The notes under the pieces were generated by a model, which was given only the letters and a program-made list of their open reading frames with translations, did no database searches and was not told the DNA's origin. The position numbers and the translations under genes were made by a program. Of a stretch of 64,000 bases of DNA, positions 1-55,762 are shown in pieces; positions within the stretch are counted from its first letter, which is position 1, and each line of letters begins with the position of its first letter. This DNA comes from a virus, in IMG/VR virus record IMGVR_UViG_3300035542_000215; one strand, 5' to 3'.

Positions 1-299
1 GCAAAAATGAAAAAGGTAATACCTTGAAAAAGGACAGGGTTTTAGAAAAAGATAAAAAAATGATTATAATAAATTCTTTTTTCAATGTTAATCCTTTTAA
101 CCACGGTGAAGCCTACGTTCTACTTGATCCTAAAACAAATTATACTTATAGAGTTTTAAGAAAAGATTTATATGAAAAACAGAGTCTTAAAAATTAGACT
201 CTTTTTCTTTTTTTGGAATATAAAATCTCATCCTTGCATATTATAAATTAGTTTGTTAAAAGGGAGCACTTACGTGCAGGTAAATAATAGGAGGTTTTT

Positions 300-628
300 A
301 TGGATGAAAAAAGATACTAGAAAAAGCAAAAAATACTGAATATAGACACAAACACTGGTTTAAAGAAGGTGGAAAAAGTGTTTATGAAGCTATTAAGCAT
401 TTTGTTGAATGTGGAGATTTTTACCTTGATTTTTCAAGCAGGATAAACTACGCAAGCCAAATTAAGGGATATGACGGGCTTAATAGTAGAAAGGATGTTA
501 CCGATTGGCTTATTGAAAAAAAGCGTTACAACAAGCTGATTATAAGGTATGCAGGCAAAGAAAAGGGTACTGATAGAGGAGTTTTAAAAGTTAAGACTTT
601 TCTAGCCTTAAAAAACGCCCTTAAATAA
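300..628 (+). pseudogene. Hypothetical protein with a 1-nt frameshift in an A-run (probable sequence error)
   Basis: Promoter 215, leader and SD AGGAGG precede ATG 300. One extra A in the A6 run at 307-312 opens a ~109-codon frame ending at TAA 626-628. Confidence 0.55.
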
Positions 629-655
629 TATCAGAAAAACATAGGAGGAATTATT

Positions 656-1252
656 GTGGCAGTAAAAAGATATTATTTGGATCTTGAATACAGCAAGACT
701 CCAAAAAAGGTATATGAAACATATATCGTTGCTTTTGGATTAACTGATGACGGAGAAGGATTACAAATCGGTCAAATATTAAAACCCTGGAGAAATTTTA
801 AAAAGAAAAATGTTCCAAAGTATTGCTCTATAACCGGGATAGAAAGAATCGAAGTTGAAAAGGCCCCTCTTCTTGAAGACATATATGATGAAATATTTGG
901 AAGAATGCAGAAAAAACAGCATGTGGTATATGCTTGGGGAACTGATGGTGATAAGTTTAAAGGTGTTGCAAAACAAAAAAATATAAATTGCAATCTTTTG
1001 TTTGAAGATTTTCAAAGAAGGCTTAAAAGAGAGTTTGGTCTTTTATATCAGCCTTCTCTTAAAAAAACTATGGAACTTATTCAAAAAAGACACGGTTTTA
1101 GAAATCATAATCCCCTTCATGATGCAATTATGCTTAAAAGAATTCATGATAAGTATATAAGAGATAAAGAAGGTTTGAGGTATTTAATGAGAAGAAGAGA
1201 TTATGAAATTCAGCTTAAAAACTTAAATAAGGAATATAAAGATGTGATTTAG
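656..1252 (+). CDS. DEDDh 3'-5' exonuclease (KapD/DnaQ-like)
   Basis: ExoI LDLEY, ExoII WGTDG and ExoIII HNPLHDA motifs; SD AGGAGG before the GTG start. Confidence 0.75.
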   Translation: MAVKRYYLDLEYSKTPKKVYETYIVAFGLTDDGEGLQIGQILKPWRNFKKKNVPKYCSITGIERIEVEKAPLLEDIYDEIFGRMQKKQHVVYAWGTDGDKFKGVAKQKNINCNLLFEDFQRRLKREFGLLYQPSLKKTMELIQKRHGFRNHNPLHDAIMLKRIHDKYIRDKEGLRYLMRRRDYEIQLKNLNKEYKDVI

Positions 1253-1401
1253 TACATTTCCCCCACTTGCTGGGGGTTTTTTGTATGGATATAGCAATAC
1301 ATTGAATATACTATGTATTTACAATGCCTATCTTTTATAGTATAATATATTATAACATACAGTTGATAGATATTTAGAATGTTTTTGAAAGGAGAGTTAA
1401 A

Positions 1402-1674
1402 ATGTCTGGAAAAAATATAAGTTTTAGGATTGATGAAGATTTAAAAGAAGAAGGCGAAAAGCTTTTTAAAGAATTAGGTATGAATATGACTACTGCTTTA
1501 ACTATTTTTATTAAACAGTCCGTAAGAGAGAGAAAAATTCCATTTCAAATAAACTTAGGTGTCCCAAGCATAGAAACTTTAGAGGCTATTGTTGAAGCTG
1601 AAAAAATGTTAAAGGATCCTAATACAAAAAAATATAAAAATGTTAAAGAATTGCTAGAAGAGTTGGATAGCTAA
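1402..1674 (+). CDS. dinJ: RelB/DinJ-family antitoxin
   Basis: NISFRIDEDLKEEGEKLFKELGMNMTTALTIFIKQSVRERKIPF is the RelB/DinJ pattern; overlaps the toxin start. Confidence 0.9.
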   Translation: MSGKNISFRIDEDLKEEGEKLFKELGMNMTTALTIFIKQSVRERKIPFQINLGVPSIETLEAIVEAEKMLKDPNTKKYKNVKELLEELDS

Positions 1675-3484: not shown

Positions 3485-4711
3485 TTACAGAATTTTCCGT
3501 TCTTTATGTTTTTTTAAAAATCCTGGATTCCATTTTTTCAAACTTTCTTCTACTATTTTTAACCTTTCCATCTTCCACTCATATAGAGTTTTATCCTTCA
3601 AGTTGTATTGTTTAGATAATTTTTCTAATACTTTCGGATATAACCATATCACCTTTGCATATTCACAGTCTTCTTCGAAAGGTGCAAAGTGCTGTTCACG
3701 CATGACATAAGTGTTAGATCCTTTTCTTTTTTCAACTATTTGTTCATTTCCTATGAATTCTGGATATTTATTGATATCTAAAATTATACCACCGTGTCCC
3801 AAGCAGTCAAACCACCATATTCCGTCTAATAGTTTTCGCTGGGATTGTACTTTTCCCCACATTTGTGAAGCTAATCTCCTTGCTATATTAGCATTTTTTT
3901 TACTCATTTTTGTCCTCCTCCAAATATTCTTCTATCCATTGGGATACTTCTTGTAAGCCTTTGGCTTTTCCTTTGTAATAATTTTCCTTATCTTGACTTA
4001 AAGCTGTATTAGCCTTGGTTAGATAACTTTTACTATGTCCTTTAGTAGTATTTAATAATCGTTTTAAAAATTTTTTATCTTCCATTTTTTTCTCCTTTTT
4101 TTCTACCATTCTTTTAATTTACAATCATAATAATTTTTTAACATGTATGCATAGTAAAGGGAAATCGAATAGCTGATAACCGGATTAAATATTACTATTT
4201 CTCTTTTATCCTCATTATCTTTTATAACCTTTAGTATCCCAAATAAATTTTCAACTATTGATACGTATGGGTTTACTATGTAGTCATATCTACCCTTATC
4301 GGTTCTTACATTATTGATTATAGTTAACCTTTTATTTTCTTTTTTCAAAGGTATTAAGTCTGCAAGACTAATAGGAACTTTCATGAAATAATAAGGTTCA
4401 TTTAATGTGTCAATAATGCTAGCACCTTTCATATCTAAAATTACTCCAATTGTTTTCTTATCATAAGGGATAGTTTTTTGAAATTCGTTTATTTTTTTCA
4501 AAATCAAACCCTCTTGTTTCCCTGGATCTATCGTGTTGTATTCATTTATGATAAAAATTGGTTGCCTTAATTTTTTATTATGATAAAGTTTTAATCCCAA
4601 TTTTTCATCTGAATATTCATTCTCAACTGCAAATCCATTATTTTGCAATTTTTCTTCAAATGATTTCTTCTCTTTTTCTCCTATGTCTATTACATCATAG
4701 TTATTTATCAT
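3485..4711 (-). CDS. Cassette of three hypothetical genes (4103-4711, 3900-4109, 3485-3907)
   Basis: Overlapping ORFs with SDs downstream of promoter 4766 and its leader. Confidence 0.7.
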
Positions 4712-4837
4712 CTTTTTCCTCCTATTATTTTGTGTTTTTTAAAAACTCCTTATTTTCTCTAAATTATTATATGCATGACTACATTTTTATATTCCTTTTA
4801 AGAAAAAAAGAAACAGCCGAAGCTGCTTCTTTATAAT

Positions 4838-5814
4838 TTATATTAATCTTTCTTTTTTCAAACATTTATTTATTTTTTTTCTATTTTCTTTGGTATCTAT
4901 AAAAGGAACGCATGAATATTCCCAATCTTTCGGTAAATCCTTAATTATCTTAATCCCATCTTTTTCAGCTTGTTTTGCAGCTTTAAGATCATCTTCAAAC
5001 ATTTCTAAGCAATCAATTCTTTCAATATGTTTAGCTCTATTTGCGAAATTGCTTTCAAATATACCGTATCCCTTTTCACATTCTTCTTTACTCCATCCTT
5101 CTTCAAGTGCTTCTTGAATTTTTATATTATTCATTTATTTTCTCCTTTATTTTTCTAAACATTTATTATTTCTATTTCCTCAGTCGTTACAAATCCTATA
5201 TATTTATAAGCTGTGCATGTTATCCTTTCGGCATCTTTAGCTTTAAAGCCCTGATTTATTAACAATTGTTTAGCCTCAATCTTGTCCGTTGTAAATAACG
5301 ACACGTTATAGCCCTTATTTTTATATTCCTGTATTTGCTTTTTGAACTTATCTTCTTGGTCAGCTCTTCCTCTTAATATTTTCATATTATTTTCTCCCTT
5401 TATTTTATTCACTTTCTACATCAAATATTTGAAATCCTGAGATACCTTCTCCCATTTTTTCTTCTATCATATTGTGAATTTCTTCTTCAGATAATTCACC
5501 CTCAAAATAGATAATTAATTTTGCTTTGGTTTCTTTTTCCATTATTTTCTCCTTTATTTAAGCAGCATATTAAAACATATGCCATCTTCTTTATGATTTT
5601 CATATTCTTCAATAGTTTCAATAGTTTCAATATTAAGTGTTATCTCACCATTTTTTATCTTTATATACAGACACCTATCTCCACTATTATAAGTTGTTTT
5701 TGCTGCAACTGGCCTTATAGTCAAAAGCATTTTATCAGGCCTGCATATCGTTATTTTTTTAGCCCTTTTTAATTTCAGTATATCTACTTTTTCTAAAAAT
5801 TCTTTAACCTGCAT
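4838..5814 (-). CDS. Hypothetical genes 5554-5814, 5155-5412 and 4838-5134, co-transcribed with thyX
   Basis: Same-strand ORFs with GGAG SDs. Confidence 0.65.
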
Positions 5815-5823
5815 TTCTTCCTC

Positions 5824-6624
5824 CTATAATAATTCATATTTTTTTCTTACATCACCTATTTCACCACATGTCATATTCCCTTCTGGACAATGACCATTTA
5901 AACATCTTGGTCCGGCATTTTTAAATAATATTGGGGCAACTTCTTTTACCTGCTCAAGCATTTTTTCAGCCATCTGCCTTATTTCCCACTGTGCTCTATT
6001 ACAACATCTTAAATTAAAAAAGTGTAGTAATGTTCTGGCATTCATAGTAACCATTATTTTAGTTTCACAAGCATTAGGAAGAACATATCTTGCATCTTCT
6101 ATTGCTTTTTTCTCTGCCTTTTCTTTATCTTTTTTAATTTTTTTTTCTTTCTCAAATTTAGAAATATATTTACCAAAATCTTCGCTGTACTTTGGAAGAT
6201 ATTTTTTATAAAGCATATCTGCTAATTTATCGTAGGCTTCTTGTGCTTTTACCATCTGCTCTATATATATTTTCTTTGCTTCATAGTCGCCATTAAGCAC
6301 TGGTGGTACAATATAGTCAAATTGACCTTCTTTTACATATCTTTGAGACCTTTGAGAATAACTGGCTATTCTATGTCTTACAAGTTGATGAGTCAGCACC
6401 CTGCTTACTCCTTCAATTGAAAAACTAAAAGATATGTGCTCAAGTGGTGATTCATGTCCTAAATTTGTTAATTTTTCTATAAATCTCTCTGTTTTTTCTT
6501 TATCAAGTCCATCCATTAGATCTTTTCCTGATAGATCAGAATAACACAGCTTTGCAGCTGCTGAAACCAGTTTTTCAGGTTCTGGAGTGTAACTTAATAA
6601 TTTTACATCTAATTTTGTATGCAT
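5824..6624 (-). CDS. thyX: FAD-dependent thymidylate synthase
   Basis: ThyX signature [14 protein letters not shown], plus GHESPLEH and [11 protein letters not shown]. Confidence 0.97.
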
Positions 6625-6742
6625 TTTTTTCCTCCAATATTTTTTTTGCGTCTAAACGCTCCTTTTCTTTTATTATTTATTATATGCAGCTATTATCTTT
6701 TATATTCCATAAAAAAAAGCAGCTAAGCTGCCTTTTTTTGGG

Positions 6743-7336
6743 TTATTCGTAAAAAACATGGTCTCCAATAGTTTTGCTGTAAGTAAGTGAATTTTCCATC
6801 CATAGTAAAGCTGATGAGTCTGCAATTTTTGGATTTACAAAATACAAAGAATCGCTTTTAAGTTCTTCATCCTTACTTTCTGTGTAAACAGTTAAAATTG
6901 CTAATTCTATTTCATCTAAATACCCATCTTTAATTACGGTATCCTTTATTTTGTTAGATGGTGAAAACTGTTTTGGTTGGTAAACAACATCGTGTATATT
7001 GTTTGGAAAATTTTCACTTTCGACTCTATTAAGTATTACCCTTACCACTTCCTTTTTTCCTTCTAACGGCTCACCCTTTGCTTCAAGATAGACTATTTTT
7101 TTTAATATTTCATAGTCTTTTGTTGCTTTGAAAAAATCATATCCATCTACAGTTACAAAATTGTTTTTTACAATCCTTTCTTCTCTTACTTTTGAGGGCT
7201 CTTCTTCTACCGTTTTTGATTCAACAACGGTAAAAGATTTAGAAGAAATCAGTACAACAATCATAACTATCATCAAAATTGCTGCTAAAGTGATTACGGC
7301 TTTTTCTGTTTGTTGTCCTATTTCTTTCATTCGCAT
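6743..7336 (-). CDS. Membrane-anchored cell wall hydrolase (SleB/CwlJ, Hydrolase_2 family)
   Basis: N-terminal TM segment; IVYLEAKGEPLEGKKEVVRVILNRV, VVYQPKQFS, SLYFVNP and IGDHVFY motifs. Confidence 0.88.
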   Translation of the reverse strand: MRMKEIGQQTEKAVITLAAILMIVMIVVLISSKSFTVVESKTVEEEPSKVREERIVKNNFVTVDGYDFFKATKDYEILKKIVYLEAKGEPLEGKKEVVRVILNRVESENFPNNIHDVVYQPKQFSPSNKIKDTVIKDGYLDEIELAILTVYTESKDEELKSDSLYFVNPKIADSSALLWMENSLTYSKTIGDHVFYE

Positions 7337-7439
7337 ATAATCCTCCTTGTTTTAAAGTGACTCATACACTCCTTTATTTTATGAATTATTATATGCATGA
7401 AGTTAATTTTATATTCCTTATATTGAATAAAATTAATTT

Positions 7440-7533
7440 TTGACGTTTTTTAGTTAAAATGATAGAATTAAGTACGGAACAAAAACAAATATGTTTTTAG
7501 CGAAAAGGTGCCTGCACTTTTTCGTATTTTTTT
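7440..7533 (+). ncRNA. Candidate ~60-nt small RNA with its own sigmaA promoter and terminator
   Basis: TTGACG(7440)-17-TAGAAT(7463); terminator GCGAAAAGGTG-CCTG-CACTTTTTCGT plus T-run at 7500-7533; no ORF. Confidence 0.5.
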
Positions 7534-7547
7534 TGTAAATCAACATC

Positions 7548-7673
7548 AAAAAAAACCCCTTCCGGGGTTTAATTTTTTTGCTTACCTGAGCCTTTCGGCC
7601 TTCCGATCCAGGTAAACTATTTTAAAGGAGCGACTTTCGTCTTGTTGATAAAGGATAGGAGGTCCTTTATCTA
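7548..7673 (-). ncRNA. Anti-leader/anti-SD small RNA, copy 1 (~125 nt)
   Basis: sigmaA promoter TTGACA(7706-7701)-16-TG.TATGAT(7684-7679). Transcript: 9-bp hairpin with loop CCUCCUA, GAC-GAAA-GUC hairpin, single-stranded GCUCCUUU, UUACCUG/CAGGUAA helix with a GCC-GAAA-GGC sub-helix, then terminator AAACCCC-GGAA-GGGGUUUUUUUU. No ORF. Confidence 0.8.
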
Positions 7674-7721
7674 TATTCATCATAACACAGCTAAAAAATC
7701 TGTCAATTTCAGATGGTTTAA

Positions 7722-7768
7722 GTGAACTACCACCACTTTCACTAAAGTTTAGAAGTGGTGGCTTCTAA
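7722..7768 (-). mobile_element. Miniature IS200/IS605-type single-hairpin element
   Basis: Minus strand TTAGAAGCCACCACTTCTAAAC...GAAAGTGGTGGTAGTTCAC: one hairpin ending in TTCAC, as in IS605 right ends. Confidence 0.55.
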
Positions 7769-7828
7769 CATCTTGTGTTAGAGCTTTTCCTGTTTCAAAG
7801 AGTTGTGCCTTATAATTAAAAAAAGACC

Positions 7829-10685
7829 TCAAGTTAATGAGATCTTTTCATCCAATTCTATTTCTTCTTCTAAACTTTCATAGGTTGTTTTCCCGTAGTA
7901 TACATTGCAAATATGCTTATATCCTTCTTCTACCCCGGCATTTGTTATAAGATAATTATCATTTTTTTTGTAAAAATGCATTGCCATTGGGTACTTGATT
8001 TGAGAGACAACCTTGTCTATATATTCTTTTAATTGTTTTTTTCCTTTTAATTTAATTTCCATATTCTTCTCCTTCATATAATCTCCATACTATTTCTTCT
8101 TTAAATTTGTACCTACTGATGCACAATATTCCCTTTTGATCTAGATCGGATATAATCATAAACCTAGGAGGGATGTTATACTTCGCAACAACTGCATCAT
8201 CACTGTACTGGAAGTTTTTTATTCCTGTAGCTGTTGTTAACCAGTGAGCATAAATCTTTTCGTCTTCAGCAATTTTTAGTTCTTTTCGTATGAATTTAAG
8301 TATTCGACCAGAAAGATCTTCCCTTGAATAATTATTCTCACTTGTTTTATTTAAAGGAGTTTCAAAACCATAAAGCCTTAAATTTTTAATAATGTTGGTG
8401 TTAACAGTATTATTAAACTCTTCTTTTATATATTTATCGAAATTTTCTATCTCCAGTTCTTCTATATCAATATTTTTGTATCCATGTTTTAAAAGCGTGA
8501 GTTCATATTGAGTTTTACTTTCATTTTTTCTTTTTAGGAATGTATTAATAATAAAGGCATCTAGTGAATCACTCTTGCTTTTAGCCCAAAGGGTTAGGCA
8601 GGTCTTTAACATTAACCTGCCTAAATATGTATTTCTATTAGGCCTTAACATAAGTTTCTTCCATTTTAAACATTTTGTTGCTTAAAACTAGCACGCCACC
8701 TGTACCTAAATCACTAGCTATTAAATACTTTTTTGGCAATGAATATTCTTGTATTTCAAAATCATCATCTACAATATAGTTTTCAAGAATACCGTTCATG
8801 GTAGTTAACCATTTTGCAAATATTTTTTCATTGTTTTTAAGTCCCATTTTTTTTCTTACAAAGGACATTACCTTTTCTATTATTTCTTCCTTCATTTCTT
8901 CAAATATGTATAAGTCTTTGTAAAACTCTTCAAGAGGCATTTTAAGCCCGTAATCCTCTAGTTTTTCTAAGATATCAATGTTTCCAAGTTCATAAAGTTC
9001 AAACTCTAATATTTTTTCAAAATCAACAACACCTGAGTCTCTAAATAATTTGTTATTATATCCTTTTTTTAGATTTTTTATCTGCACAGCTGTTTCGCTT
9101 TCTGGTGTTTCCCCTTGTATTTTTTCCATCATCCAAGGTTCATTTGCTAATTTTTGAAGTTCAAGTCTAGCTGAAATACTTTTTACCTTATTGATAATAT
9201 CCTGTTCTGTTTTTCCCATGGATAATATTTTTATCACCATTTCTTCAAATTTTTCTTCCATTTTATTTCTCCTCTATCCTTTTATTCCAATTATCTTCCC
9301 TGGATAATATGATTTTTGATCAGTCGCTACATACTTGTTAAATTCAATCAATTCATCTACCAGATCTTCCTTTCTTTTACTACTTAAAAGATAGTCTTCT
9401 ACCCATCTACTCATAAGGGCTTCCTTGAACTGGTATTTTGTAAAATCAAAAATAACAAGATTAGCATTTAGATATGCTTTTACATATGTGTGTTTTCTTA
9501 TTTTTTCACAACAACAGTCTTTACAGTTGTACTCACCATTCATCATCCTGTAATCAATATACTCATCTATATTATCAATACAATTGTTACATGGATTATC
9601 ATTTGCACTATAGTCTGGATGATTATAATGTCCCCTTATGACCTTTATGTCCCATTCTTTAAAGAATTCCATTCCTTCCATTTCTTCTGCCATTTCAAAA
9701 GCGATTTCTTCGCTTATATATGGAAAATCTTCAATTCCGAAACTCTTAATGAGTTTTTCTCTTAATTTTTCATTTAGAAATTTTCTTTCTTCTTTGAAAT
9801 TTGCAATCATTTTGTTGCTCCCTTAATGGTGTTTGAAATGCCTGGATAATAGCTGTTGTAATTAGATGTCATAAAATTATTAAAGCTCATTAATTCTTCA
9901 ACTATTTGCTTTTTTACTTCTTCATTAACCACAGACTTTTTTCTTTTTAATTCATTTATCTTTAATTGAATGTCACTCATCTTGTCTATATTGAATTGAT
10001 AGTTGGTGAAATCATAAATCATAACTGCTTCATCTAAGTAAGCTTTTATGTATGTATGCTGCTGCATCTTATTACAAGTACATCCTTCACAGAGATACTT
10101 ACCATTTTTTATATTTTTCTTATAATCTTCTAAATCACCTATATCTTCTTCACATAAAAGGTCTTTATCATAATCTGGGTGGTTATAGTGTCCTCTTTCG
10201 ACTATTATTGACCAATCTTCAAAAGCTTTTAACTTTTTCATTTCTTCAGCCATTGATAAAGATATTTCATGACAGATAAATGGAAAATTTTCATGGTCAA
10301 AATTCTCTAAGAGTAATTTCCTTATTTTCTTTTTAATCAAATCTCCTGCTTCATCATATTCAAAATCTAGATTATCAGGAAAGCTTCTTTTTGAAAGTTC
10401 AGAATCTAAAACATGTGTTATTGCAGACATACAGTCGTTAACTATTTTGTATTTTTCATAATCTTTGTTTTCTCTGCTTTCATGTATTGGTGGTCTGAAA
10501 TATAAAACTGCGGTATCTCTTAAGTTTCTCAGTTCCAAAAAGTCTTTTTCTTCGATTTCGCAAGTGCTTTTAATCTTTTCTATGTTTTCTTTGCTAGCGA
10601 AACCTCTTTCAATTTTTCCCTCATTCATTTCCTTAATCCAGTACCCGTAAATTTCTTTAATCATTTCTACATTGGATTTTTTCAT
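7829..10685 (-). CDS. Five-gene cassette containing two tandem paralog pairs (9807-10685/9274-9810 and 8638-9261/8052-8651) plus 7829-8077
   Basis: First pair shares FP.I..EI...MAEEM...RGHYNHPDY...HTY.KAYL...DFT.YQF; second pair shares A.WLTT..GI. Promoter at 10742. Confidence 0.75.
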
Positions 10686-10932
10686 TTGTATCCTCCTATT
10701 TTTTTGTGTTAAAAAACAACACTCCTTTAACTAAGTAGTTTATTATATGCAAAAGTTAAAGCTTATATTCCTAAAATTTCTTTTAAAAAAGACAATATTT
10801 TGGAGTAATTTCATGGCTTTTAGCAGCATCTTTGCTACGTCGTTTTCGGGTTGATAGTATTTTTGAAATGATAAGGTAGGATTTGACATTATCGATTCTA
10901 TAAAAAATCTCATCATAGAAAAATGTATTAAA

Positions 10933-10992
10933 GTGAACCTCTCCACCTAAAGCAGTAAAAAGATTTAGATAGAGCCTTCTTGCAAGTTTTAG
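10933..10992 (-). mobile_element. 60-bp miniature IS605-type element
   Basis: Minus strand TTTAT|CTAAAACTTGCAAGAAGG-hairpin-GGTTCAC; a close relative lies at 43739-43798. Confidence 0.6.
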
Positions 10993-10994
10993 AT

Positions 10995-11118
10995 AAAAAA
11001 AAGAGCCTATGGGGTAGGCCCTTCTGTTTACCTGTGCCTTTCGGCTTTCCGGTCCAGGCAAACTATTTTAAAGGAGCGACTTTCGTCTTTTGATAAAGGA
11101 TAGGAGGTCCTTTATCTA
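10995..11118 (-). ncRNA. Anti-leader/anti-SD small RNA, copy 2
   Basis: Near-identical core and promoter (TTGACA 11151-11146, TATGAT 11129-11124) to copy 1, but a different terminator (GGGCCUA/UAGGCUC plus U8). Substitutions mostly keep the pairing. Confidence 0.8.
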
Positions 11119-11246
11119 TATTCATCATAACACAGCTAAAAAATCTGTCAATTTCAGAAGGTTGTGTTTCAATTTTCATGAAAAAACCTAGGTTATATAA
11201 CCTAGGTTTTTGCTGCGAAGCGAATATATCAATTAAATTTAGATTT

Positions 11247-12397
11247 CTATGCTAATATTTTTTTCTTTTGGGTTTCTTTGATATAATCTATATAATAATT
11301 TAAGTTTTCAAATGGGCTTAAAACATCATCATCTTCTTCAAAGATAGATTCTAACCCGCTTGCTACCCATCTATCATTTTTATTGTCAAATATTTCAGTT
11401 TCTATCCAGTTGTTATTTTGTAAAAATAAAACCTTTTTGTTTTCTTTAAGAGTTTCATTATTTATAAACTCATATTTAACAACTTCTTCTAGTTCTTTGT
11501 CATCTTTTATATAAGAACCTAATAAATCGACTAACACTTCACTATTATTCTTATCTTTTACATATTCTTTCATTTCTCCATTTTCATAATATGTTCCGTT
11601 TACATCACCATAAACAGATACAAATATCTCAAATTCTTTATAAGTGATAGTTCCGATTGTTCCACCATACCATAAGCAGTCTTGCCTATTTTCCATTATT
11701 CTTTCTTCGTCTAATTCTATTTCCATTCCTAATTTTAAAGCATTTTCTTTAATTTCCTTTATTTTTTCTCTTATTTGTTCATTATTTAAATTCATTAGTC
11801 CCTCCTATTAATAATAAAATTCCACCATTTTTTCGTTTTTGTTATTCTCTTCATTTAAAGAATAAAATCCTAAATCTTCAGCTTCATAAGGATCTTTTTC
11901 AAAAGCAAATATTTCAACTTCTTCTACTGCTTTTTCTTCTATATATTCCTCAACTACTTTTCCGTTTTCTTTTAGCATTACAACTTTTATGTTTTTCATA
12001 ACAAAACTCTCCTTTATATGTTTTTTTATAAACTTTTTTCTGTTAAAAACTTTAGTTCTTCTTCATTATTTTTTATACAGTCTTTCATAGTAAAGCTAAC
12101 ATATTCTTGATTTAACAGTTTTTTATACCCATTTAAAATATCTTTTGGTTCGTAATCATATCCACAATAATTTATATATCTCTTTATGTTTTCTTCTGCA
12201 TCTTCTTTTGTAGATATTTTTTTGCTTTTGACATTTGTTTTGGATATATTTTCTTTTGCTCCTTGTAATTCAGATAATTGATTTTGCACTAATGAAATTA
12301 TTTTCATAATTCCACAGATTCCATCTCTTGATGCATTAATTTTGCATTTTTTATCAAAATACATACATTCTTCCTTTACGCAGCTTAATGGTTCCAA
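11247..12397 (-). CDS. Hypothetical cassette (12026-12397, 11808-11999, 11247-11795)
   Basis: ORFs with SDs downstream of promoter 12462 and its leader. Confidence 0.7.
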
Positions 12398-12552
12398 TTA
12401 TTAAACCTCCTTTCTCCTATTATTTTTTGTGTTTAAAAACACTCCTTATATTTACTAAGTTATTATATGCAGTTGAATATTTTTATATTCCAAAATCACA
12501 ACAAAAAGAAATAAGACTGAAAATTTTCAGTCTTTTTTCTCTTTTTAACATG

Positions 12553-12732
12553 TTAAAAATTAATATCTGTATTTTTTTTGTTATTTTCCTTAAAATAAGT
12601 TATTAAGCTATCTCCACTTGCTGGTTTTGGATCATCACACTTGTCGCAATTAAAGATTGTGCCTTGATAATCCCATTGTTCGGTTATTTCTCCACCGCAT
12701 CTACATTCATATCTTGTTATTCCTCGTCCCAT
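12553..12732 (-). CDS. Zn-finger microprotein (59 aa), not in the ORF track
   Basis: Translated by hand: MGRGITRYECRCGGEITEQWDYQGTIFNCDKCDDPKP...; paralog of 13205-13375 and 17276-17461. Confidence 0.7.
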   Translation of the reverse strand: MGRGITRYECRCGGEITEQWDYQGTIFNCDKCDDPKPASGDSLITYFKENNKKNTDINF

Positions 12733-12760
12733 ATTTATATTCCTTTCTTTAAAAATATTT

Positions 12761-13051
12761 TTAATTTACAGTCTTTAAAAAATCCTTAACAGCTTCATCT
12801 AGATTCTCATATATAATGGGAGACATTTCCTTTTCGAAAAGCCCCATTACAGTAGTACAATTCTCATCTTTATCGATATTAATTCCTAAACTATAATTGT
12901 CTTTATACTCTTCACTCCATGAAGCTTCTGTTATATATATAAAATCAAATCCTTTTTCCAAGTATTTTTTTATGAATTCTTCTTCTATTAAATTTAAAAA
13001 ATCTTCAAATTCTACTTTATAGATGTATTTTTTTATTTTTGTATTTTTCAT
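12761..13051 (-). CDS. Hypothetical protein
   Basis: SD AAGGAG; lies within the cassette from promoter 13428. Confidence 0.65.
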   Translation of the reverse strand: MKNTKIKKYIYKVEFEDFLNLIEEEFIKKYLEKGFDFIYITEASWSEEYKDNYSLGINIDKDENCTTVMGLFEKEMSPIIYENLDEAVKDFLKTVN

Positions 13052-13204
13052 TTTTTCTCCTTATTTTTTTAAATAGGCCTGTTATATCATAATAAGCATC
13101 ATTTGCATTAATATTAGTCCCCAAATTATAAAAATAATTAATGGTACTGTTATTAAAACACAAACGGCCCTAAATATTAAATCGTTCATGACTTCCTCCT
13201 TCTT

Positions 13205-13375
13205 TTAATATGGAACTTCTACTGTATTTTCAACATCTAGTTCAAATTCTTCAACTACTGATTCTGGGTTTGGATTATTACATTCACTACATTCAATATA
13301 TCCTGTTAAATGATCCCATTCTTCAGTAATTTCTCCTCCACATTTACATACATAAAAAATTCTTCCTGATCCCAT
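13205..13375 (-). CDS. Zn-finger microprotein (56 aa), not in the ORF track
   Basis: MGSGRIFYVCKCGGEITEEWDHLTGYIECSECNNPNP...; first gene after promoter 13428 and its leader. Confidence 0.75.
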   Translation of the reverse strand: MGSGRIFYVCKCGGEITEEWDHLTGYIECSECNNPNPESVVEEFELDVENTVEVPY

Positions 13376-41430: not shown

Positions 41431-42492
41431 CCTAGTTCATCAAAGTTACTTATTTCTTCTTCTCTTAAAATTTTATAATCATCATAATATTTAATATTTT
41501 CAGACTTTAAAGACTGTACTTTTTCTAAAGCTTCAGCCTTATTTTCACATACTCCATATAGTATCCATAGTCTTTCTGTCTCAAGAGTCATAAGGACAGC
41601 TATATAATGTTCTTTATTTTCTTCTTCTTGAAGTCTTATCTCTATCTCTTCTTCTAAAGCTTGTATAGTGTCTAAATACTGCTTTTTAGTCTCATCTCTA
41701 TGAGGTCTAATGTATTCAATAATTTCAAACATTTCTTCTATCATTTCTCCAATATCTTCGCCTTCAATTATATAGCTACATGTGTAGTCCTTATCTGTTG
41801 TATTATAAGCTGTAAAATGCAGCATATAATTTTTTTCTTTATCTACTCCAGCTACAATATGAAAAGCGTCGTAATCTTCCAGATAAACCGTATCATAATG
41901 ATCTAATTTTGATTTTAATTTTTCTCTTATTTCTCCTAAATTTCCTTTTGTTATTTTAAATTCTCTCATTTGCTTTCTCCTTCAAATATTTTCAAATACT
42001 CTTTTTTTATGCTTTCCCTAAATCTTTGTTCTACATTTCTAATCTCAAGTATTTTATCAAGTATTTTTTCAATGTTTTTCCCCTTGATTAGATAATCATA
42101 GATTTCAAAAGAAGTTTCTGATTCGTCAGTAAAATATACTTGGTAGTTACTATCCTTGATAAAGGCAGTGATAACTATGTGATAGTATTCTTCAATGATA
42201 ATTTTTTCAGAATCTTTTTTTAATTTTTCTACATAATCAATAGCTTCATCCTCTGTCTTGAATTTGATGACTTCTAAATTATCCGTCATCTTATTATTTC
42301 CATTTTCAAAGTTTCTTTTTCAACTGGATACCAGTATTTTAAAATTGTATATTCTTCATTTACTTCTATAAAATCTCCAACTATATATGGATCTTCATCT
42401 TTATAAACCAAGTTACCAGTTACCCATTGACCTTCTTTCATATTAAGTTCTTCAAAATCTCTTGTTATTTGTCCTCTGAATTGATAAATCAT
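41400..42492 (-). CDS. Hypothetical genes 41400-41969 and 41966-42289, and a YopX-N-like microprotein 42286-42492
   Basis: Leader and SD after promoter 42548 place the start of the last ORF at MIYQFRGQ rather than at 42585. Confidence 0.65.
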
Positions 42493-42787
42493 TTTTACCT
42501 CCTGTTTTATTTTGTATTTTTTTATACTCCTTATTGTTTGTTTCCTTATAATATGCAAAATGGAGTTTTTATATTCCTTTTTCAAAAAATCTTTTTTGGC
42601 AAAAACGTCTGTATCCTATATTAAAACATAATTTCAGCGATTTTTTTTACATAGAAATATGCAACGGTTGCATATATTGCTTTTTTGTAATATTTTGTCT
42701 TATGATTTGGTTTCATTTCTACATGTTTTTGATAAGTTAATCTTACCATTTTAAAAATTCTTGTCAAAATATTAGATTTTTGACAAA

Positions 42788-46397: not shown

Positions 46398-46742
46398 TGG
46401 TGGAGCTGGTGGGATTTGAACCCACGTCCAAAAATATTTCCACAGGACTTTCTACGAACATAGTTCTCTTTATTCTTTAACTACATATATCAAAGAAAAC
46501 AAATCTATATGCAGCTATCTCAAGTTCTTTTGTATAGGGTCTGAGAGTCTCTAATACAGTTTTTTCGCAGTTAATGATACTCAATGTTGACAAGCGAAAA
46601 ATATCAACGTGAGCAGTCGTTTTTGAAGCGACAGTTTGTTTTTATACTATGCGTTTAGTTTAGTTTGTTAGTTTTTATGTTGACTAACTCAACAATTCGC
46701 TTATCCTGTTTTTATATCCTCGTCGAAACCATTTTCAACCCC
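46398..46742 (-). ncRNA. ssrA: tmRNA (345 nt) with a one-codon tag ORF
   Basis: 5' GGGGUUG pairs with CAGCUCC-ACCA including the G3-U alanine wobble; GGUUUCGAC near the 5' end; T-arm GUGGG-UUCAAAU-CCCAC; pk1 GUUGA/UCAAC plus GUUAG/CUAAC; UAAAC then GCA UAG at 46652-46647. Confidence 0.92.
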
Positions 46743-46923
46743 AATTTATTTCTTTTAAATCCTCATCTTTTCATAATCATACTCTCCTTTTTTTTATTTA
46801 CACATAAGTGCTCCTTAAACATCTAATCTATTATATGCAAATATTACTTTTTATATTCGTTTTTTGAAAATAAAAAAAACACCCCTTTGAAAAAAATCAA
46901 AAAGGTGTTTAAAAATTTGATTA

Positions 46924-48580
46924 TTAATATAATTTTTTGAAAACTATATAACCTTCGAAATATGAATCTTCTATTACTTCGAATCCTTTTTCTGCATAAA
47001 AACTTAAGTTTTCTTCTTCTACATATATCATTACTCCACCAATATCGTTACTCATAAATGCTGTATCTACAATTGAGTTCAAGTTTTCTACTATAGCTTT
47101 TTTTATTATCCTACCATCATACTCTTCATTTATTTCAATGTCTTCTAAAACATATATGCTTTCCATATCATCAACAAGATCAAAATCTTCATCTATAATA
47201 ATACTAGCTATAACTTCTTTGAACCCGGATTCTGCATCCATTTCAAATAGAAATTTAGTTAAATTGCGAATTAGACATTTAGGTGCAATTTTATAACCCG
47301 TCATACCCCCAATGGTTTCATTTTCTTCACCTTTCATAACATCAATTACAAAATTAAAATCTAAGCTATGATCTGATCTTTGTTCCTCTGGAGTCTCATA
47401 TACTCCATCTTCTTCTCCAAATATCATTATTGGATTATTAGCTACTGGGCTAATTAAAAATCCATCCATTTCTTTTTTTCATATTATTTATCTCCTTTGT
47501 TTTTTTACAGCTTCAAAACTGCTCCTTATTTTGAACTAATTTATTATATACATCTCACTAGATTCATATTCCTACTTTTTATTTTTTGTCGATATACTCA
47601 ATTATTTTATAGAGATATGTAGTTTTCCTTATTTTATAAAAAGCTAATCTTATAATATCTTTTTGTGTTTTCAATCCTATTTTCATATCTATTTCTCTTT
47701 CAGCATTTTCATCTAAGGCTTCTTTTATTACTTCTTTTTCTTTACTATTCCATTTTTCAAGCTTTTTTCCTTCCATTTCGTTTTTCAATAATTGGGATAA
47801 GTTTAAAAATTTTTTTATTGTCATTTTCGACCAATTTTTTTTTAAATGCCATTTTTGATCTAAACAAATCATATATGCCGATAACCATACCAGGGCTGTT
47901 TTTTCAGAATTGTTTTGTGTTTTTTTTAAAAGTTTCATAGTATGCAGCATGCCAGGTTTTATATTTCTACTTAACCCATGACATACACATGCTTCATGAT
48001 ACAATGTTTTTTTTTCTTCGAAAATTAATTCTTTGTATTCTTGTATATATTCTTTTTTCCACCAGTCAAAATCTTTAACATTATAATAAGAGTTTTTGTT
48101 TTCAATTTCAATTGTTTCTATTTCTGTTTTAAAATTTTCTCCAAATTCTTCTTTCCACATTTCATAAATATCTTTCCAATTTAAATTATTTTCTTGCATT
48201 TTTTTCTCCTTTTATTTTTATAATGCTTCTCACAAAGCACTTGTAAATGTCCTTTGTTTCTTAATTTTCCTTTTTCTCCACATATTTCACAGGTTTTTCT
48301 ACTTAAAGCAGCATATTTACCTGTTATTTCTTCAATTTTTTTCATTTAAACAATTTGTGTAGATATTAAGCACTCCGTATTTTTCTTTAACTTGAAAGAT
48401 GTATAAGTCTTTTTTCTCTTTTTTGCTTAACACCTTTTCTATTTCTTTAGCCCAACCATAAATTAATTTAGACCATCCATCTCCACATTCTACAAATAAT
48501 CCATTATTTGCCTTAATAAACCATGGAAAATCTTTTTTTATTTTTTTCTCTATTTTTTTATCCATATCTACCCTCTTCAA
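46924..48580 (-). CDS. Hypothetical genes 46924-47469, 47579-48199 and 48332-48580 (the last frameshifted in a homopolymer)
   Basis: SD-led ORFs; 48332 continues in another frame as ...CEICGEKG...LCEKH. Confidence 0.6.
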
Positions 48581-49195: not shown

Positions 49196-50460
49196 TTATG
49201 ACCTTATGGTGTTTATGATTTCTACAACTCTAATTTTTAAAAGTATTACTGCCAAAACTTCAAATAGCATTATGTTAAGGGCTGTTATAAGAGCTTTTTT
49301 ATCTTCAAGAATTAATCCTGAAATTATCAAAATCATGCTTATTACTGCTCCAATGAACAATATCCAGTGTATAGTAGCCATGCTTCCTAAACTTTCTATA
49401 TTTTCTAAATTCATAACTATTTTCTCCTTTTTTTTATTATATGCATTTGACTGTTAAATTATTCCAATCAAATAAAAAAAGAAGATCTCTAAGATCTTCT
49501 AATTTTGTTTATATCTTATTTTCTCTTTTTTCATGTTTTTCTACGTAGTATTTAAATATTTTTTTTAAGCTTTTTATTAAATCAGGTAAGTTTTTAGGTT
49601 TATCTTCAAAGCTTTTTTCATCAAAAGTACCTACAAAACCATTGGGACAGTAAGAATAAGCAGTGTTAAACCATGTATTCTTGCCTACGGTTCTAGTTGA
49701 TATGTAAGCAGCATCTTCACCTAACAGTAGAGTAGCGAATATGTTCTTGCTATCAACAAATTTTGATTCGTCCCATTTTTTATCGAAAGCCTTAATTATG
49801 TCTTTGTGAATATGGACTTCCAACTTTAAACCTTCGCATTTCATTTTACCTGATATTAATATTTTTTTACTTTTGTCTAGTCCTTTGATATCTTCCTTGT
49901 CAACTGGTCCTAAAATAAAATTGTCACAAAATTTTATATTGAATTCATCCTCTAAATAAAACTTTCCCTCTTTTTTTCTAACTAAACCTTCCAAATTTGC
50001 AACTTTTTTTACAGACATGAATTTTCCTGTTAGCAATCCTTGAGAAAATTTAAAATAATTCTCTCTTTTTTCTGTTATATTAAACTTGCTGGCTGCATTT
50101 TTGTAGGTAGGAGCACTTTTAATTTTTTGTTCAGAAGCTATTATTTCTTTTAACGCTGCTTTGTAAACGTCTTTATACTCCTTCATGAATCTCTTCCTCT
50201 TCTACAACTGCATATGCATGGACCATACCTTCTTCGTCTAGCTTAATTAACATGTCATTATCCATTTTCTTATATAGTCTGCCTAGAAGTTTTAAAGTAT
50301 TGCTTACAGATGAGTTAATGACTATATCGTCTATGTATTCACCAAAACATAGGTCTTGTTTAATATAATCTTTTTCAATCACTTCTATTGCTGCTTCTAT
50401 CTGTTTAGTTTTTACAATTTCGTCTCCATTTGAATATACTAATATTTTTTCTTTATTCAT
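49196..50460 (-). CDS. Small membrane protein 49196-49414 and hypothetical genes 49509-50186, 50173-50460
   Basis: Downstream of promoters 49436 and 50519. Confidence 0.65.
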
Positions 50461-50843
50461 TTTTTCCTCCTATTTTTTTCATTGAACAAATATTTGCTCT
50501 CCTAATTTTTCATAGTTTATTCTATGCATTTTAGGTTGTTTATATTCCTTAACGACAAAATTTGGCAAATTAGAATTTTTTTTATTTTTTTGGAATATAT
50601 TAATTAAAAAGTGCATATAATAGAACATCACAATAAAGGAGTGTTCTTGCACTGCTAAAAATACAGGAGGAAGATAATGCTAAAAAAAAATAGTTTTAAC
50701 AATTGAGGTACCAGATGAATTTGATCAATATGATGAGGCTGAACTAGATTTAAGAATTTCAGAAACAGTTTCAGAATTTGACTATGAATTAATTAATTCT
50801 GACGAATATATCGAAGTATAAAAATAAAAAAAGGAGATTAGAC

Positions 50844-52311: not shown

Positions 52312-52504
52312 ACTCTACTCCTTTTTTTCTTTTTTTAGTCCTAAAGTTAACAACTTTTCCTAATTTTTTATGTGAATAAAATCACTCCTTATTTAACATA
52401 TAATATTATATGCATTATTATTTTTTTATATTCCCAAACATCTAAATATTTTAAAATACTCAAATAAGTGGTAAGATATATAAAAGCTGTTTAAAGGAGA
52501 GCTC

Positions 52505-52897: not shown

Positions 52898-53020
52898 TAT
52901 AAAAAGATCCACCAATAACTGGCAGATCTTAATTTATTTTTATTTATTTTTTTTTGTTAACGACTTTAATTTGTTAACGACTTTATTTCCCGTTTTCATC
53001 AAAAATTTATATTTTAAAGC

Positions 53021-55372
53021 CTATCTGATAGGGCAAACTCCTGATTCACACGATTCGTTTCCTATGTCAAGTTCTGTTTCAACTTTTTCATATTTTCCAA
53101 GTAGGGAAGGTATAAAAGGCTTCATTTCAGAAGACATTTTTTCATACTTTTCTTTAGAAATTGATTCGTATGGCAGCAACTCATAAAAATTATCATCTAG
53201 TGATAAAAATGAAAGTGCTACAACATCATTCCAATTATCCCATACCCACTGTTCAACTTTATCCCACTCATCATCTCTTACATGAACTGTAATTGAGCAG
53301 TTATGGTCTACATAATTTTCCATAAACATTTTATAATTTTCAAGTTGTTCTATAGCTGAAACATCATATTTTGTTTTCCCTTCAGGTGATTTTACTGGGA
53401 ATTCAATTACTTTCGTAGTACAAGTTTTTTCGTCCTGTCCAACTTCAGAAAATATATTATATTCTAACTCTTCACAAACTTTTACTAATGGATCGTTAGC
53501 ATTTATTCTAACCCTTCTTATATAGTAAGGCGAATGTGAATAATGTACGCCACTAGATACTGTTGGAAGTTGAGATAATGTTCCCTCAGGTTTTACTGTC
53601 GTTACTAGTATAGGCGTTTTTTCTCCTAATGATTTAGCATATTTTTCAGCTTCCTCATTAGCAGCTATTTTTAATTTTTTAAGTATTTTTGCCTGTTCTT
53701 TTTTGTCAAGATTACAAGCATTTACCATGTCTTGCCATCCAGTTAAAGAACAACCAGTTAATTTATCTCTTTGCTGTACAGCATTCCATTCAGGAATTTC
53801 AAGTTCAACGCAAGTCATTCTGTATGCTGCTCTGACTGATAATTTTTGTGCTTGTTCTAAACCTTCTAGGTCAAGAGTACCGTCTTTTTTAACAAAAGAG
53901 TGTACGTTTATTGTAGTTAAGTTGCACAAACCATTAGAATCAAGTAATATTTCACCACAAGGATTTACCCCGTTCATATTATCTCTTCTTTTCTTACCGG
54001 CCTCTTCATTTACCCAACCAGGTTCACCGGAGTATCTCATTTGTTCTATTTGCCAATGAAGCTGCTCTCTTGTTGGCTTTTCTTTATAATAGATAGAATT
54101 GTTACTCATTTGTCTATGTATAATGTCCTTATCTACTTTCCATTGCTCGTCAATTTTTTTATAAAGATTATTTTTTGCACCGATTGCTTCTTCATCATCA
54201 GCGTCTACAAGGGCAATTTCTGCCGTTCTTCTAACTCCGCCAACTACAACATTTTCACCAATTATGTTTGCTACATCTAAGCAATCTATTGGTTTAAGTT
54301 TTACCTTGTCACTATCAGAAATGCTTCCTCTCTTTTTTAAGACTTTATCAATTTTTAAAAACATATTTTTAATGCTTTCGTGACCACTTGCAGTTCCTCC
54401 AAATGTTTTAAGAGGCTCTCCTTTAGGCCTAACATTATCATAATTGATTCTTATAGTTTTTACATTTCTATATTCATTACTGTGTAGGAGTTCAAAGAAA
54501 TAACCGATTGACTGAACCCAACCTTCTTTACTATCTCCAACTCTTAATCTTGCAGTTGTATTATTTGAGAAAGTTAAAGAAGTATTATCTTCTCTTTTTT
54601 CTTTTTCTACGGGAGTATAATCTTCATGTATTACTTCAAATTGACTTCTGATTTTTGGTAATTTTTTTACATCATCTTTTAAAATTCTTATTCCAACTCC
54701 AGATCCTACCATCAACAGGTAAAATAGATCTCTAAATGCTTTAAACCTATCAACTACTGTAAAAGCACAATTGTAATTTGCCATAGGATAGTTTTTAGCA
54801 ACTGGTGTTCCTCCTACCCAAAATGTTCTTCCTGATAGAAATTGTCTCAAGTTAAAAATATTATCGTAAAGAGTTTCTGCTTCAGCTTTTGTTGTGGGAA
54901 CTAGATTGCAGTTATATTCAACTGCTCTTTTTACCGTTTCCCACCAGTATTCTCTTCTTTTTTCTTCGGGCAACCATCTTGAATAAGTTCTGTAATATAC
55001 AAAACTACCAAGCTGCTTCATTGGAGGTTGCTTATGTTTATATCTAGAAAGAAATTCATCAGTTAACAAAGAGCTTTCTTTTTTAGCTTTTCTGGTAGGT
55101 CTTGACTTATCTCTTTCATATCTGTAAACAATATATCTTTTAGCAACATCTTTTCTTACACTTTCCATAAGCTGGTCTTCTACCATATCTTGGATTTCAT
55201 CAACGGAAATATCATAAGGTGTTTCTTTGATTTTTTCTTCAATTTTACCAGCTATATCTTCAGCTATTTCAATATCCAAGCCTTCTTTTGTTTCATTCAT
55301 GGCATTAGATATCGCTTTTACAATTTTCTCTTTTTTAAATTCTACTTTTTCTCCACTTCTTTTTACAATCAT
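53021..55372 (-). CDS. nrdJ: Class II (adenosylcobalamin-dependent) ribonucleotide reductase with N-terminal ATP cone
   Basis: ATP cone VKRSGEKVEFKKEKIVKAI; NPCGEILL; TTVKPEGTLS; C-terminal CESGVCPIR; no NrdB partner nearby. Confidence 0.93.
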   Translation of the reverse strand: MIVKRSGEKVEFKKEKIVKAISNAMNETKEGLDIEIAEDIAGKIEEKIKETPYDISVDEIQDMVEDQLMESVRKDVAKRYIVYRYERDKSRPTRKAKKESSLLTDEFLSRYKHKQPPMKQLGSFVYYRTYSRWLPEEKRREYWWETVKRAVEYNCNLVPTTKAEAETLYDNIFNLRQFLSGRTFWVGGTPVAKNYPMANYNCAFTVVDRFKAFRDLFYLLMVGSGVGIRILKDDVKKLPKIRSQFEVIHEDYTPVEKEKREDNTSLTFSNNTTARLRVGDSKEGWVQSIGYFFELLHSNEYRNVKTIRINYDNVRPKGEPLKTFGGTASGHESIKNMFLKIDKVLKKRGSISDSDKVKLKPIDCLDVANIIGENVVVGGVRRTAEIALVDADDEEAIGAKNNLYKKIDEQWKVDKDIIHRQMSNNSIYYKEKPTREQLHWQIEQMRYSGEPGWVNEEAGKKRRDNMNGVNPCGEILLDSNGLCNLTTINVHSFVKKDGTLDLEGLEQAQKLSVRAAYRMTCVELEIPEWNAVQQRDKLTGCSLTGWQDMVNACNLDKKEQAKILKKLKIAANEEAEKYAKSLGEKTPILVTTVKPEGTLSQLPTVSSGVHYSHSPYYIRRVRINANDPLVKVCEELEYNIFSEVGQDEKTCTTKVIEFPVKSPEGKTKYDVSAIEQLENYKMFMENYVDHNCSITVHVRDDEWDKVEQWVWDNWNDVVALSFLSLDDNFYELLPYESISKEKYEKMSSEMKPFIPSLLGKYEKVETELDIGNESCESGVCPIR

Positions 55373-55386
55373 TTTTTATCTCCTTT

Positions 55387-55608
55387 TTAGTTTAGCTTAT
55401 CTTCTTCTGTTATTTCCCAAATATATATTTCTTTTTCAGGATGCTTTTCTCTCATTATTTTAAATGCTTTATTTCTAGCTTCAACTGTATCTTTAGCTTT
55501 TACAACTCCCTGGTCCACACTAATATTTTTTCCCCAGTCTTTAGATACATCAGCTGCAAATTCATATTCGTTAAGTTTTTCTTTTATTTGTGTAAAGCAT
55601 CTTCCCAT
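55387..55608 (-). CDS. Hypothetical protein leading the nrdJ operon
   Basis: First gene after promoter 55666 and its leader. Confidence 0.7.
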   Translation of the reverse strand: MGRCFTQIKEKLNEYEFAADVSKDWGKNISVDQGVVKAKDTVEARNKAFKIMREKHPEKEIYIWEITEEDKLN

Positions 55609-55762
55609 TTTTTCCTCCTTTATGTTTTTAGCGTAAAATAACGCTCCTTTATTTACCTCAAAACTATACTATGCATTTATGTGCTTTTATATTCCATGTT
55701 TTTCAAAAAAAAGCATAAAAAAAAGAAAGCCTTGTAAATTTTCAAAGACTTTCTTTATTTTT

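Follow-up and report, generated by a model that had tools for sequence, protein, structure and literature searches.

A repeated AGGAG-hairpin mRNA leader with a covarying stem in IMG/VR record IMGVR_UViG_3300035542_000215

The element and its promoter-leader cassette

The DNA analysed here, referred to throughout as the window, is a stretch of 64,000 nucleotides (nt) from the IMG/VR virus record IMGVR_UViG_3300035542_000215; it contains a short mRNA leader, an AGGAG box running directly into a small hairpin, that is repeated behind 27 promoters. The GC content of the window is 28%, and its many small genes are accompanied by genes for ParA/ParB, a DnaD-like replication protein, a class II ribonucleotide reductase, ThyX and a NAD-dependent ligase, as well as by a gene for transfer-messenger RNA (tmRNA) and an IscB/HEARO element. 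We read the element as a large plasmid or phage-plasmid of an uncultured low-GC member of the Bacillota; its host is probably spore-forming.

The repeat is built on a promoter, GGAATAT-N14-GCATATAAT, which is present in 35 copies of identical internal spacing between positions 215 and 55695 of the window. The promoter reads GA-ATA-T, 14 nt and G-CATATAAT, that is, ATA-N16-CATATAAT. For Clostridioides difficile, a mapped sigma-E promoter has been written as ATA-N16-CATATATA, with CATATAAT as the mother-cell −10 box and the ATA motif at −35 telling sigma-E from sigma-K (PMC3789822). By this comparison of sequences, the cassette promoter appears to fit the clostridial sigma-E-type pattern. Intrinsic terminators were found directly upstream of the cassette promoters (20 in 18 kb versus 4.4 expected), and the module behind the promoters would therefore form the 5′ end of primary transcripts. 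Transcription would start about 7 nt past the −10 box, at a conserved TTAG that is found 4–8 nt past it; the promoter geometry would then place the AGGAG box at about +8 to +15 and the hairpin from about +15.

Genes headed by the cassette include thyX, the reductase operon, the genes for a transglutaminase-like protein, a SleB/CwlJ-type hydrolase and a YopX-like protein, many small unknown open reading frames (ORFs) and tmRNA. A leader with two boxes follows 27 of the 35 promoter copies. Six promoters are leaderless: a Shine-Dalgarno (SD) sequence lies at the same distance from the −10 box as the first leader box and is used directly, with neither hairpin nor second box. Behind the promoter copy at 3024 (minus strand), neither an SD nor an ORF is present.

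Pairs of AGGAG boxes about 25–30 nt apart were the first view of this larger repeat. The AAGGAG-hairpin would be the front half of a standard 5′ untranslated region (UTR) of about 50 nt that is joined to the sigma-E-type promoter and repeated 27 times. The first box, [A/G]GGAG (box 1), lies 14–18 nt past the −10 box. The stem always opens at the last G of AGGAG, is 3–6 bp long and closes loops of 3–7 nt (mostly 4) that are not conserved in sequence; an A-rich linker follows the closing C of the stem. The true SD is reached 25–36 nt after box 1, and the start codon 7–14 nt further. The original prediction, made from the sequence of the window, had described about 27 leaders with a near-invariant AGGAG (one of them GGGAG), a stem that changes in sequence while its pairing is kept, and an A-rich linker with the real SD behind it. 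This description was confirmed: 27 leaders were counted, with one GGGAG (at 262) and a further degenerate AGGAT copy, the true SD lies behind the hairpin as proposed, and the coordinates and stems that had been named are all present in the sequence.

The leader at 254–302 (plus strand) has the box GGGAG, the stem GCAC/GTGC and the loop UUAC, followed by linker, SD and ATG; its first ORF has six codons. The other full copies on the plus strand have the box AAGGAG. Their stems are GTGC/GCAC at 20412–20458, 26895–26944, 35801–35845 (YopX-like gene, true start 35843) and 37124–37173; GTGA/TCAC at 24971–25016 and 34161–34207; GCAC/GTGC at 32871–32917; GCAT/ATGC at 22779–22827; GTGCA/TGCAC at 23703–23750 (transglutaminase-like gene, true start ATG 23748); GTGT/GCAC, with one G-U pair, at 50629–50679; and a weak GTA/TAC at 29536–29584. 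The degenerate 28th member (29900–29946, plus strand; box AAGGAT, stem TTGTT/AACAA) stands behind the promoter at 29865.

On the minus strand, AAGGAG runs into the stem GCGT/ACGC at 55606–55656 (heading a 73-aa ORF, then ribonucleotide reductase), 13373–13420 and 6622–6671 (thyX), and GAGGAG runs into the same stem at 18756–18802. TAGGAG is followed by GAGCAA/TTGTTC at 50458–50511. The remaining minus-strand copies, all with AAGGAG, have the stems GTGA/TCAC at 52351–52397 (weak second box, leader longer than usual), GCAGTT/AGCTGT at 47480–47534, GCAC/GTGT at 46778–46823, GTAT/ATAC at 42490–42539, GAGGC/GTCTC at 17626–17677, GCAAC/GTTGC at 15984–16034, GTGTT/AACAC at 12395–12454, GTGTTG/TAACAC at 10683–10734, a weak GTG/CAC at 7334–7381 (SleB/CwlJ-type cell-wall hydrolase gene) and GTTTT/AAAAC at 4709–4758.

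The leaders also set start codons. The leader at 42490–42539 gives ATG 42492 in place of TTG 42585, a correction that had been predicted and that holds; likewise, 23748 replaces 23715 and 35843 replaces 35813. The start set by the leader at 47480–47534 opens only 10 codons (47450–47482, minus strand), and a 181-aa ORF begins 13 nt later in another frame, past seven A; the short frame could stem from an error in sequencing, from a frameshift or from a start that is set wrongly. The leader at 46778–46823 is followed by a five-codon ORF and then by the tmRNA gene (46398–46742, minus strand), so that a full cassette of promoter, two-box leader and the ORF MIMKR stands directly before tmRNA (46398–46823); the module therefore also drives a non-coding RNA.

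Pairing of the stem was examined in a fixed register. At least 4 bp in the exact register are formed in 25 of the 27 leaders, compared with a mean of 3.2 and a maximum of 10 after shuffling of the downstream 22 nt (2000 trials); as a control, 32 of the 223 other AGGAG sites of the window form 4 bp. The leaders contain 12 distinct 4-bp stems, all of them paired, and permutation of the 3′ arms gave a mean of 2.2 and a maximum of 8 (20000 trials). Pair 1 is G-C in 25 copies and G-U in two; pair 2 is U-A (15), C-G (10) or A-U (2); pair 3 is mostly G-C (17) or A-U (8); and pair 4 is C-G (9), U-A (9) or A-U (4), plus others. On the opposite strand, seven G-U pairs would turn into A-C mismatches; the structure therefore belongs to the sense RNA. 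The predicted change of sequence with kept pairing thus passed both the permutation and the shuffle tests.

A covariance model scored the 27 leaders at 26–50 bits, with the degenerate copy at 29900 next (AGGAT box, 23.6 bits), and found no leader copies away from promoters in the window. Copies from the window and from a metagenome-assembled genome (MAG; see below) were also combined into a model-fitted alignment of 34 rows; in this alignment, which leans to the model as the register-fixed script for the 27 leaders does not, and in which the row L003:638-670 is probably a false match within a coding region, 97% of cells are paired versus 73% in shuffles, and the covariation score is 0.717 versus 0.243, a value reached in 0 of 500 shuffles. 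Both-sided changes occur in three of its four pairs, and slid registers are 7–72% paired. The conserved flanks, AGGAG-Y-R … R-C-A, exceed the needs of a bare stem.

Predicted folds gave mean unpaired probabilities of 0.87 for box 1 and 0.76 for the true SD, and a mean pair probability for the hairpin of 0.67 at 37 °C and 0.64 at 55 °C. At 0 to −5 kcal/mol, the stems are weak enough that another factor probably stabilises them or makes use of them. A search of Rfam, which had been proposed as a check, was run at gathering thresholds and at E values up to 1; barring sub-threshold chance matches, it found no family at the leaders or at the small RNAs described below, and the matches in the window were tmRNA and HEARO only. 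Represented by about 40 examples in two divergent elements, the leader is a real 5′ UTR module, strongly covarying and uncatalogued.

Box 1, the true SD and a predicted anti-SD small RNA

Box 1 is not an ordinary SD and belongs to a different sequence class from the true SD. In box 1, AGGAG is followed by C or U in 25 of 27 leaders (p about 3e-6) and by G in 0/27, whereas G follows the GGAG of the true SD in 21 of 26 cases (Fisher p 2e-10 versus box 1); the second base after AGGAG in box 1 is G in 18 of 27. All leaders have an AAGGAG-type box, and GGAGG was found at box 1 in 0/27. Pairing with the 16S rRNA tail gave −9.2 kcal/mol for box 1 and −11.1 for the true SD, the tail used being the canonical Bacillota sequence from general knowledge, which may not be the host's own. 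Box 1 seems, from these preferences, to have been selected against full 16S complementarity.

The proposed lack of a start codon at SD distance from box 1 was borne out in part. No start-like codon lies 4–12 nt past box 1 in 16 of the 27 leaders, but 11 have a start-like triplet there (ATG in four), which opens frames of 1–32 codons with no conserved frame. The start-codon region behind box 1 falls within the hairpin.

Two copies of a predicted, terminated small RNA (sRNA) of about 125 nt are encoded on the minus strand of the element. Copy 1 (7548–7672) has a promoter of sigma-A type (TTGACA-N17-TATGAT), a 9-bp hairpin with the loop CCUCCUA, a single-stranded CGCUCCUUUA, a third helix and a terminator; copy 2 (10995–11117) has the same seeds and a different terminator. 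The predicted fold also contains a GAC-GAAA-GUC hairpin and a single-stranded GCUCCUUUAAAA.

The leader sequence UAAAGGAGYG is complementary to the sRNA seed CGCUCCUUUA beyond the SD core. Box 1 pairs with this seed at −13.7 kcal/mol versus −9.2 with the canonical 16S tail, the seed being the better partner in 27/27 leaders (p 6e-6); for 60 true SD regions the same seed gave −9.8 kcal/mol (p 1e-8 versus box 1). The gain comes from the U before AAAGGAG and from the Y-G after it, which match A and CG in the sRNA. Y followed by G in box 1 is a requirement of pairing with the 5′-CG-3′ of the sRNA, not with the 16S tail. Avoidance of GGAGG, a last G locked in the stem and a pyrimidine as the next base would fit a box that is invisible to ribosomes and visible to a partner that offers G and C, as the sRNA does. 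Cofolding placed an intermolecular helix on box 1 in most leaders. The two seeds of the sRNA lie antiparallel to the two leader boxes at about 25 nt from each other, which matches the box spacing, and an alignment of the complement of the sRNA to the leader model runs from one end to the other with both boxes in place, although at only 8.6 bits.

Homologues of the sRNA were found with a covariance model on two metagenome contigs, at L011:8591-8679 (plus strand, 84.5 bits) and L010:3754-3842 (minus strand, 72.7 bits). Both contigs carry the cassette promoter, and both homologues keep CGCUCCUU and CUCCUA, with compensatory changes in helix 3. An sRNA docking site had been among the functions originally suggested for the leader; the extended complementarity, the antiparallel seeds of matching spacing and the homologues on the two contigs lend this suggestion specific support. 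On L010, a near-identical (96%) copy of the sRNA promoter segment (3601-3628) is followed by an unrelated sequence, which suggests reuse of the promoter itself.

Relatives and surrounding genes

Relatives of the cassette were sought by the pattern of promoter plus box. The exact pattern is absent from viral contigs, in which further pattern scans gave only single chance matches, with no cassette relatives and no sRNA; there were two single matches in 185,579 species genomes, and 11 metagenome contigs were recovered. On L003, L006 and L009, AAAGGAG is followed by a 7-bp stem, GCUUUCY/GGAAAGC, in which a U-G pair of one copy is C-G in another. L011 has three leader-like copies together with integrases and five cassette promoters; a search for longer contigs of L011 gave nothing new.

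The Tissierellia MAG behind L001 holds at least 11 further leaders on short contigs of 34–39% GC (G001 contigs C216, C187, C100, C217, C218 and C139; loci L146-L156). Their promoters keep the −35 box TTTGGAATAT and have the variant −10 box CGTATTAT. The layout is AGGAG, a stem from the last G, CA, linker, AGGAGG and ATG, with stems such as GCGTT/AACGC, GTGTT/AACAC, GTGTC/GACAC and GTGCTT/AAGCAC. By eye, AGGAG is followed by Y in 11/11 copies and then by G in 9/11, and the boxes are 23–28 nt apart in three leaders. The MAG cassette contigs are probably a related mobile element binned with the MAG. Candidates for an sRNA in the MAG were rejected as the antisense of an ordinary ribosome-binding site and as a match inside a coding region.

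DNA of the element was detected in oil-field, subsurface, aquatic and wastewater metagenomes, and one protein of the window is also encoded on a 110 kb contig. Searches of phage and plasmid collections by DNA gave no close record, a homologue search with a 292-aa cassette gene matched only the gene itself, and a search of sequencing runs found no RNA runs with DNA of the element. Also encoded on flanking contigs are a Rep3 initiator, a RelB/YafQ pair and, together with a helicase, a methylase of the restriction-modification type. Contigs from four other metagenomes, compared over 4600–24599, join differing cassette positions, for example 10705 to 16032, 10706 to 22724 and 16005 to 22725; the many joints at cassette positions could reflect gene shuffling at cassette boundaries in relatives (mosaics) or an effect of repeats on assembly.

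Among the cassettes, a HEARO RNA (127 bits) is followed by an IscB-type protein with RRXRR and HNH domains (30119–31718, plus strand). Genes in or beside the regulon encode the SleB/CwlJ-type cell-wall hydrolase (PF07486; 6743–7336, minus strand) and the YopX-like protein (35843–36253, plus strand). A stand-alone protein with the C-terminal domain of the RNA polymerase alpha subunit (PF03118, E 1.5e-18) is encoded at 40942–41430 (minus strand), in the regulon or neighbouring it.

Possible functions of the leader and comparison with known systems

All 27 gene units would most likely be controlled together through the shared leader, by one sRNA or by the ribosome. The proposal that we favour, tentatively and with rather less than even confidence, is that the leader is a two-site landing pad for the element's own anti-SD sRNA. 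The sRNA resembles a mirror image of the leader: the single-stranded CGCUCCUUUA of the sRNA would pair with UAAAGGAGYG, that is, with box 1 and the first stem bases, and its hairpin loop CCUCCUA with the true SD (UAGGAGG). Box 1 would then be an SD look-alike that is barred from SD function by a last G held in the stem, by the Y next to it and by the lack of a conserved start codon; the small hairpin would deny ribosomes access to box 1 and fix how far apart the two sites lie. By binding both of them, the sRNA would single out cassette mRNAs among all mRNAs that bear an SD and stop their translation, so that leaky transcripts would be silenced until the regulon is switched on; alternatively, the bound sRNA might cover the 5′ end and protect the mRNA. 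Both the binding and the direction of its effect are inferred. The C-rich seeds of RoxS act on SDs and on a 5′ end (PMC5419742), and the c4 antisense RNA is an sRNA gate in the phage-plasmid P1 (PMC8198154).

The wider form of this proposal, held with somewhat more reserve still, is a regulon-wide two-point RNA lock: one sigma-A-driven RNA would gate a sigma-E-type, sporulation-coupled programme post-transcriptionally, with the hairpin-capped box as an address label that spares host mRNAs.

Several observations weigh against pairing with the sRNA as the role of the leader. Neither BLAST nor the covariance model found an sRNA homologue in the Tissierellia MAG, a fragmentary bin, where at least 11 leaders have AGGAG-Y-G and the hairpin. 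The 27 leaders are paralogues, so the energy statistics largely test one consensus against one sRNA, and at the level of the consensus the extra match amounts to about three positions only. Full pairing of the seed with box 1 would melt three of the four hairpin pairs; a hairpin under selection is thus not obviously needed for sRNA binding. Two leaders on L011 have AAGAG boxes with a poor seed match, and on L010 the sRNA stands beside a single-box leader.

A stabiliser of the mRNA 5′ end that acts in cis and needs no sRNA, one of the functions originally suggested, is possible although on balance doubtful. A 30S subunit would dock on AAGGAG, be unable to initiate and shield the 5′ end from decay of the RNase J1 type; the hairpin would fill the P-site region, where there is no start codon, and serve as a second block. 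The argument is one of analogy: in the Bacillota, the STAB-SD of cry3A, a non-initiating SD near the 5′ end, binds 30S and blocks RNase J1 (PMC4113751), and occlusion of the 5′ end or a strong SD without a start codon are common stabilisers (PMC3997798). The leader has the corresponding parts, a single-stranded SD look-alike in the 5′ UTR at about +8 to +15 with no conserved start codon, and the terminators upstream of the promoters would put this box at a primary 5′ end; leaders also persist in the MAG in which no sRNA was found. The sequence of box 1 is less easily accommodated. It is never GGAGG (0/27 versus 21/26 at the true SD), its last G is locked, and its 16S pairing is the weaker one (−9.2 versus −11.1 kcal/mol), so that a stabiliser, plausible by analogy with STAB-SD, has to face a box that looks selected against full 16S complementarity. 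The preference for C or U after AGGAG is left without explanation, and some 14 unpaired nt before the hairpin are too many for a classical 5′-terminal stem-loop block. The sRNA landing pad and the cis stabiliser are not mutually exclusive.

The leader might instead be a two-site target of a GGA-binding protein, either a CsrA-like dimer that bridges box 1 and the true SD or another protein of the host or the element that needs the hairpin. Two GGA boxes with one over the SD are the classical layout of a CsrA target, as in hag of Bacillus subtilis, and the leader has two GGA boxes 25–36 nt apart in the window and 23–28 nt apart in three MAG leaders, and one of the two boxes overlaps the SD; flanks conserved beyond the needs of a bare stem could also be read by a protein. 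The GGA of a CsrA site usually lies in a hairpin loop, however, whereas here it lies 5′ of the stem and the loops are not conserved, and no CsrA-like gene turned up among the few proteins scanned, no search having been aimed at one. This explanation is unlikely.

Of the cis-regulatory module that had been predicted, the covarying 5′ UTR RNA stands, whereas its proposed role as a ribosome standby site or translation enhancer, with 30S held at box 1 before sliding to the true SD, is quite improbable. Two SD-like boxes on one short open leader would suit it. Standby sites serve structured start regions, and the true SD is already open (0.76) and strong (AGGAGG); the hairpin between the two sites would moreover hinder sliding.

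Still less probable is that the leader has no function as RNA and is a by-product of an SD-bearing promoter cassette copied before genes with their own SD, with the palindrome as a DNA scar or a protein operator. The six leaderless promoters with a directly used SD at the same distance, the cassette before the tmRNA gene and the contigs of other samples that switch partners at cassette positions are all consistent with such copying. At least 12 different stems nevertheless keep their pairing with both sides changing, in two divergent elements, and the seven G-U pairs work on the sense strand only; an operator would keep its sequence, not its pairing alone. Four other candidates were rejected: leader-peptide or bicistronic coupling (no conserved start, frame or length of a short ORF), a lambda nut-type antitermination site (loops and stems vary freely over 27 copies), an antisense terminator (4-bp stems are too weak) and recombination hairpins of the IS200/605 or integron type (stems are too short and vary between copies).

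If the leader is read by the sRNA, the element would offer a compact natural case of post-transcriptional control in which dozens of genes are reached through a shared address label on their mRNA leaders and not through many independently evolved sites, and a plasmid or phage programme would be linked to the sporulation sigma factor of the host. If the leader is a stabiliser, elements of the STAB-SD type would be standard, copyable parts of promoter cassettes with a hairpin partner, which would be useful for the design of expression systems in the Bacillota. With either reading, several gene starts are corrected, and a new RNA motif is defined that lends itself to modelling and searching, its examples numbering about 40 in two divergent elements.

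The leader is a variation on decoy-SD stabilisers and on targets of anti-SD sRNAs, both of known kinds; the motif itself is new. With the lambda nut site (boxA plus boxB) it shares a short conserved linear box that is followed by a small hairpin near the start of a phage transcript; in lambda, boxB is conserved and read by the N protein, whereas here stems and loops differ freely among the 27 copies, and every unit has a terminator of its own. RoxS and RsaE are trans-acting sRNAs in which C-rich single-stranded or loop seeds pair with SD regions, as is predicted here. Their host targets are scattered, whereas the element has a single shared leader that would offer two cognate sites, and both copies of the sRNA lie on the same mobile element. 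Pairing by the c4 RNA uses two sites. Like the sRNA of the element, c4 of P1/P7 is an sRNA of a mobile element, and it silences a lytic-type function via short sites around a ribosome-binding site (PMC8198154). The single operon controlled by c4 is the one that encodes it, whereas the sRNA of the element is encoded elsewhere than its proposed targets, which number up to 27 separate units. STAB-SD (cry3A of Bacillus thuringiensis), the SP82 polypurine element and the aprE and hbs leaders have a non-initiating, SD-like purine box near the 5′ end of a Bacillota mRNA, as is predicted for the leader, and STAB-SD shares with the leader a link to stationary-phase or sporulation expression (PMC4113751, PMC3997798). 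Unlike STAB-SD, the leader has a box that is sub-optimal for 16S rRNA (AGGAG-Y), a covarying mini-hairpin in fixed register and a real SD at a fixed distance, and it is repeated 27 times together with its promoter and matched by a dedicated anti-SD sRNA.

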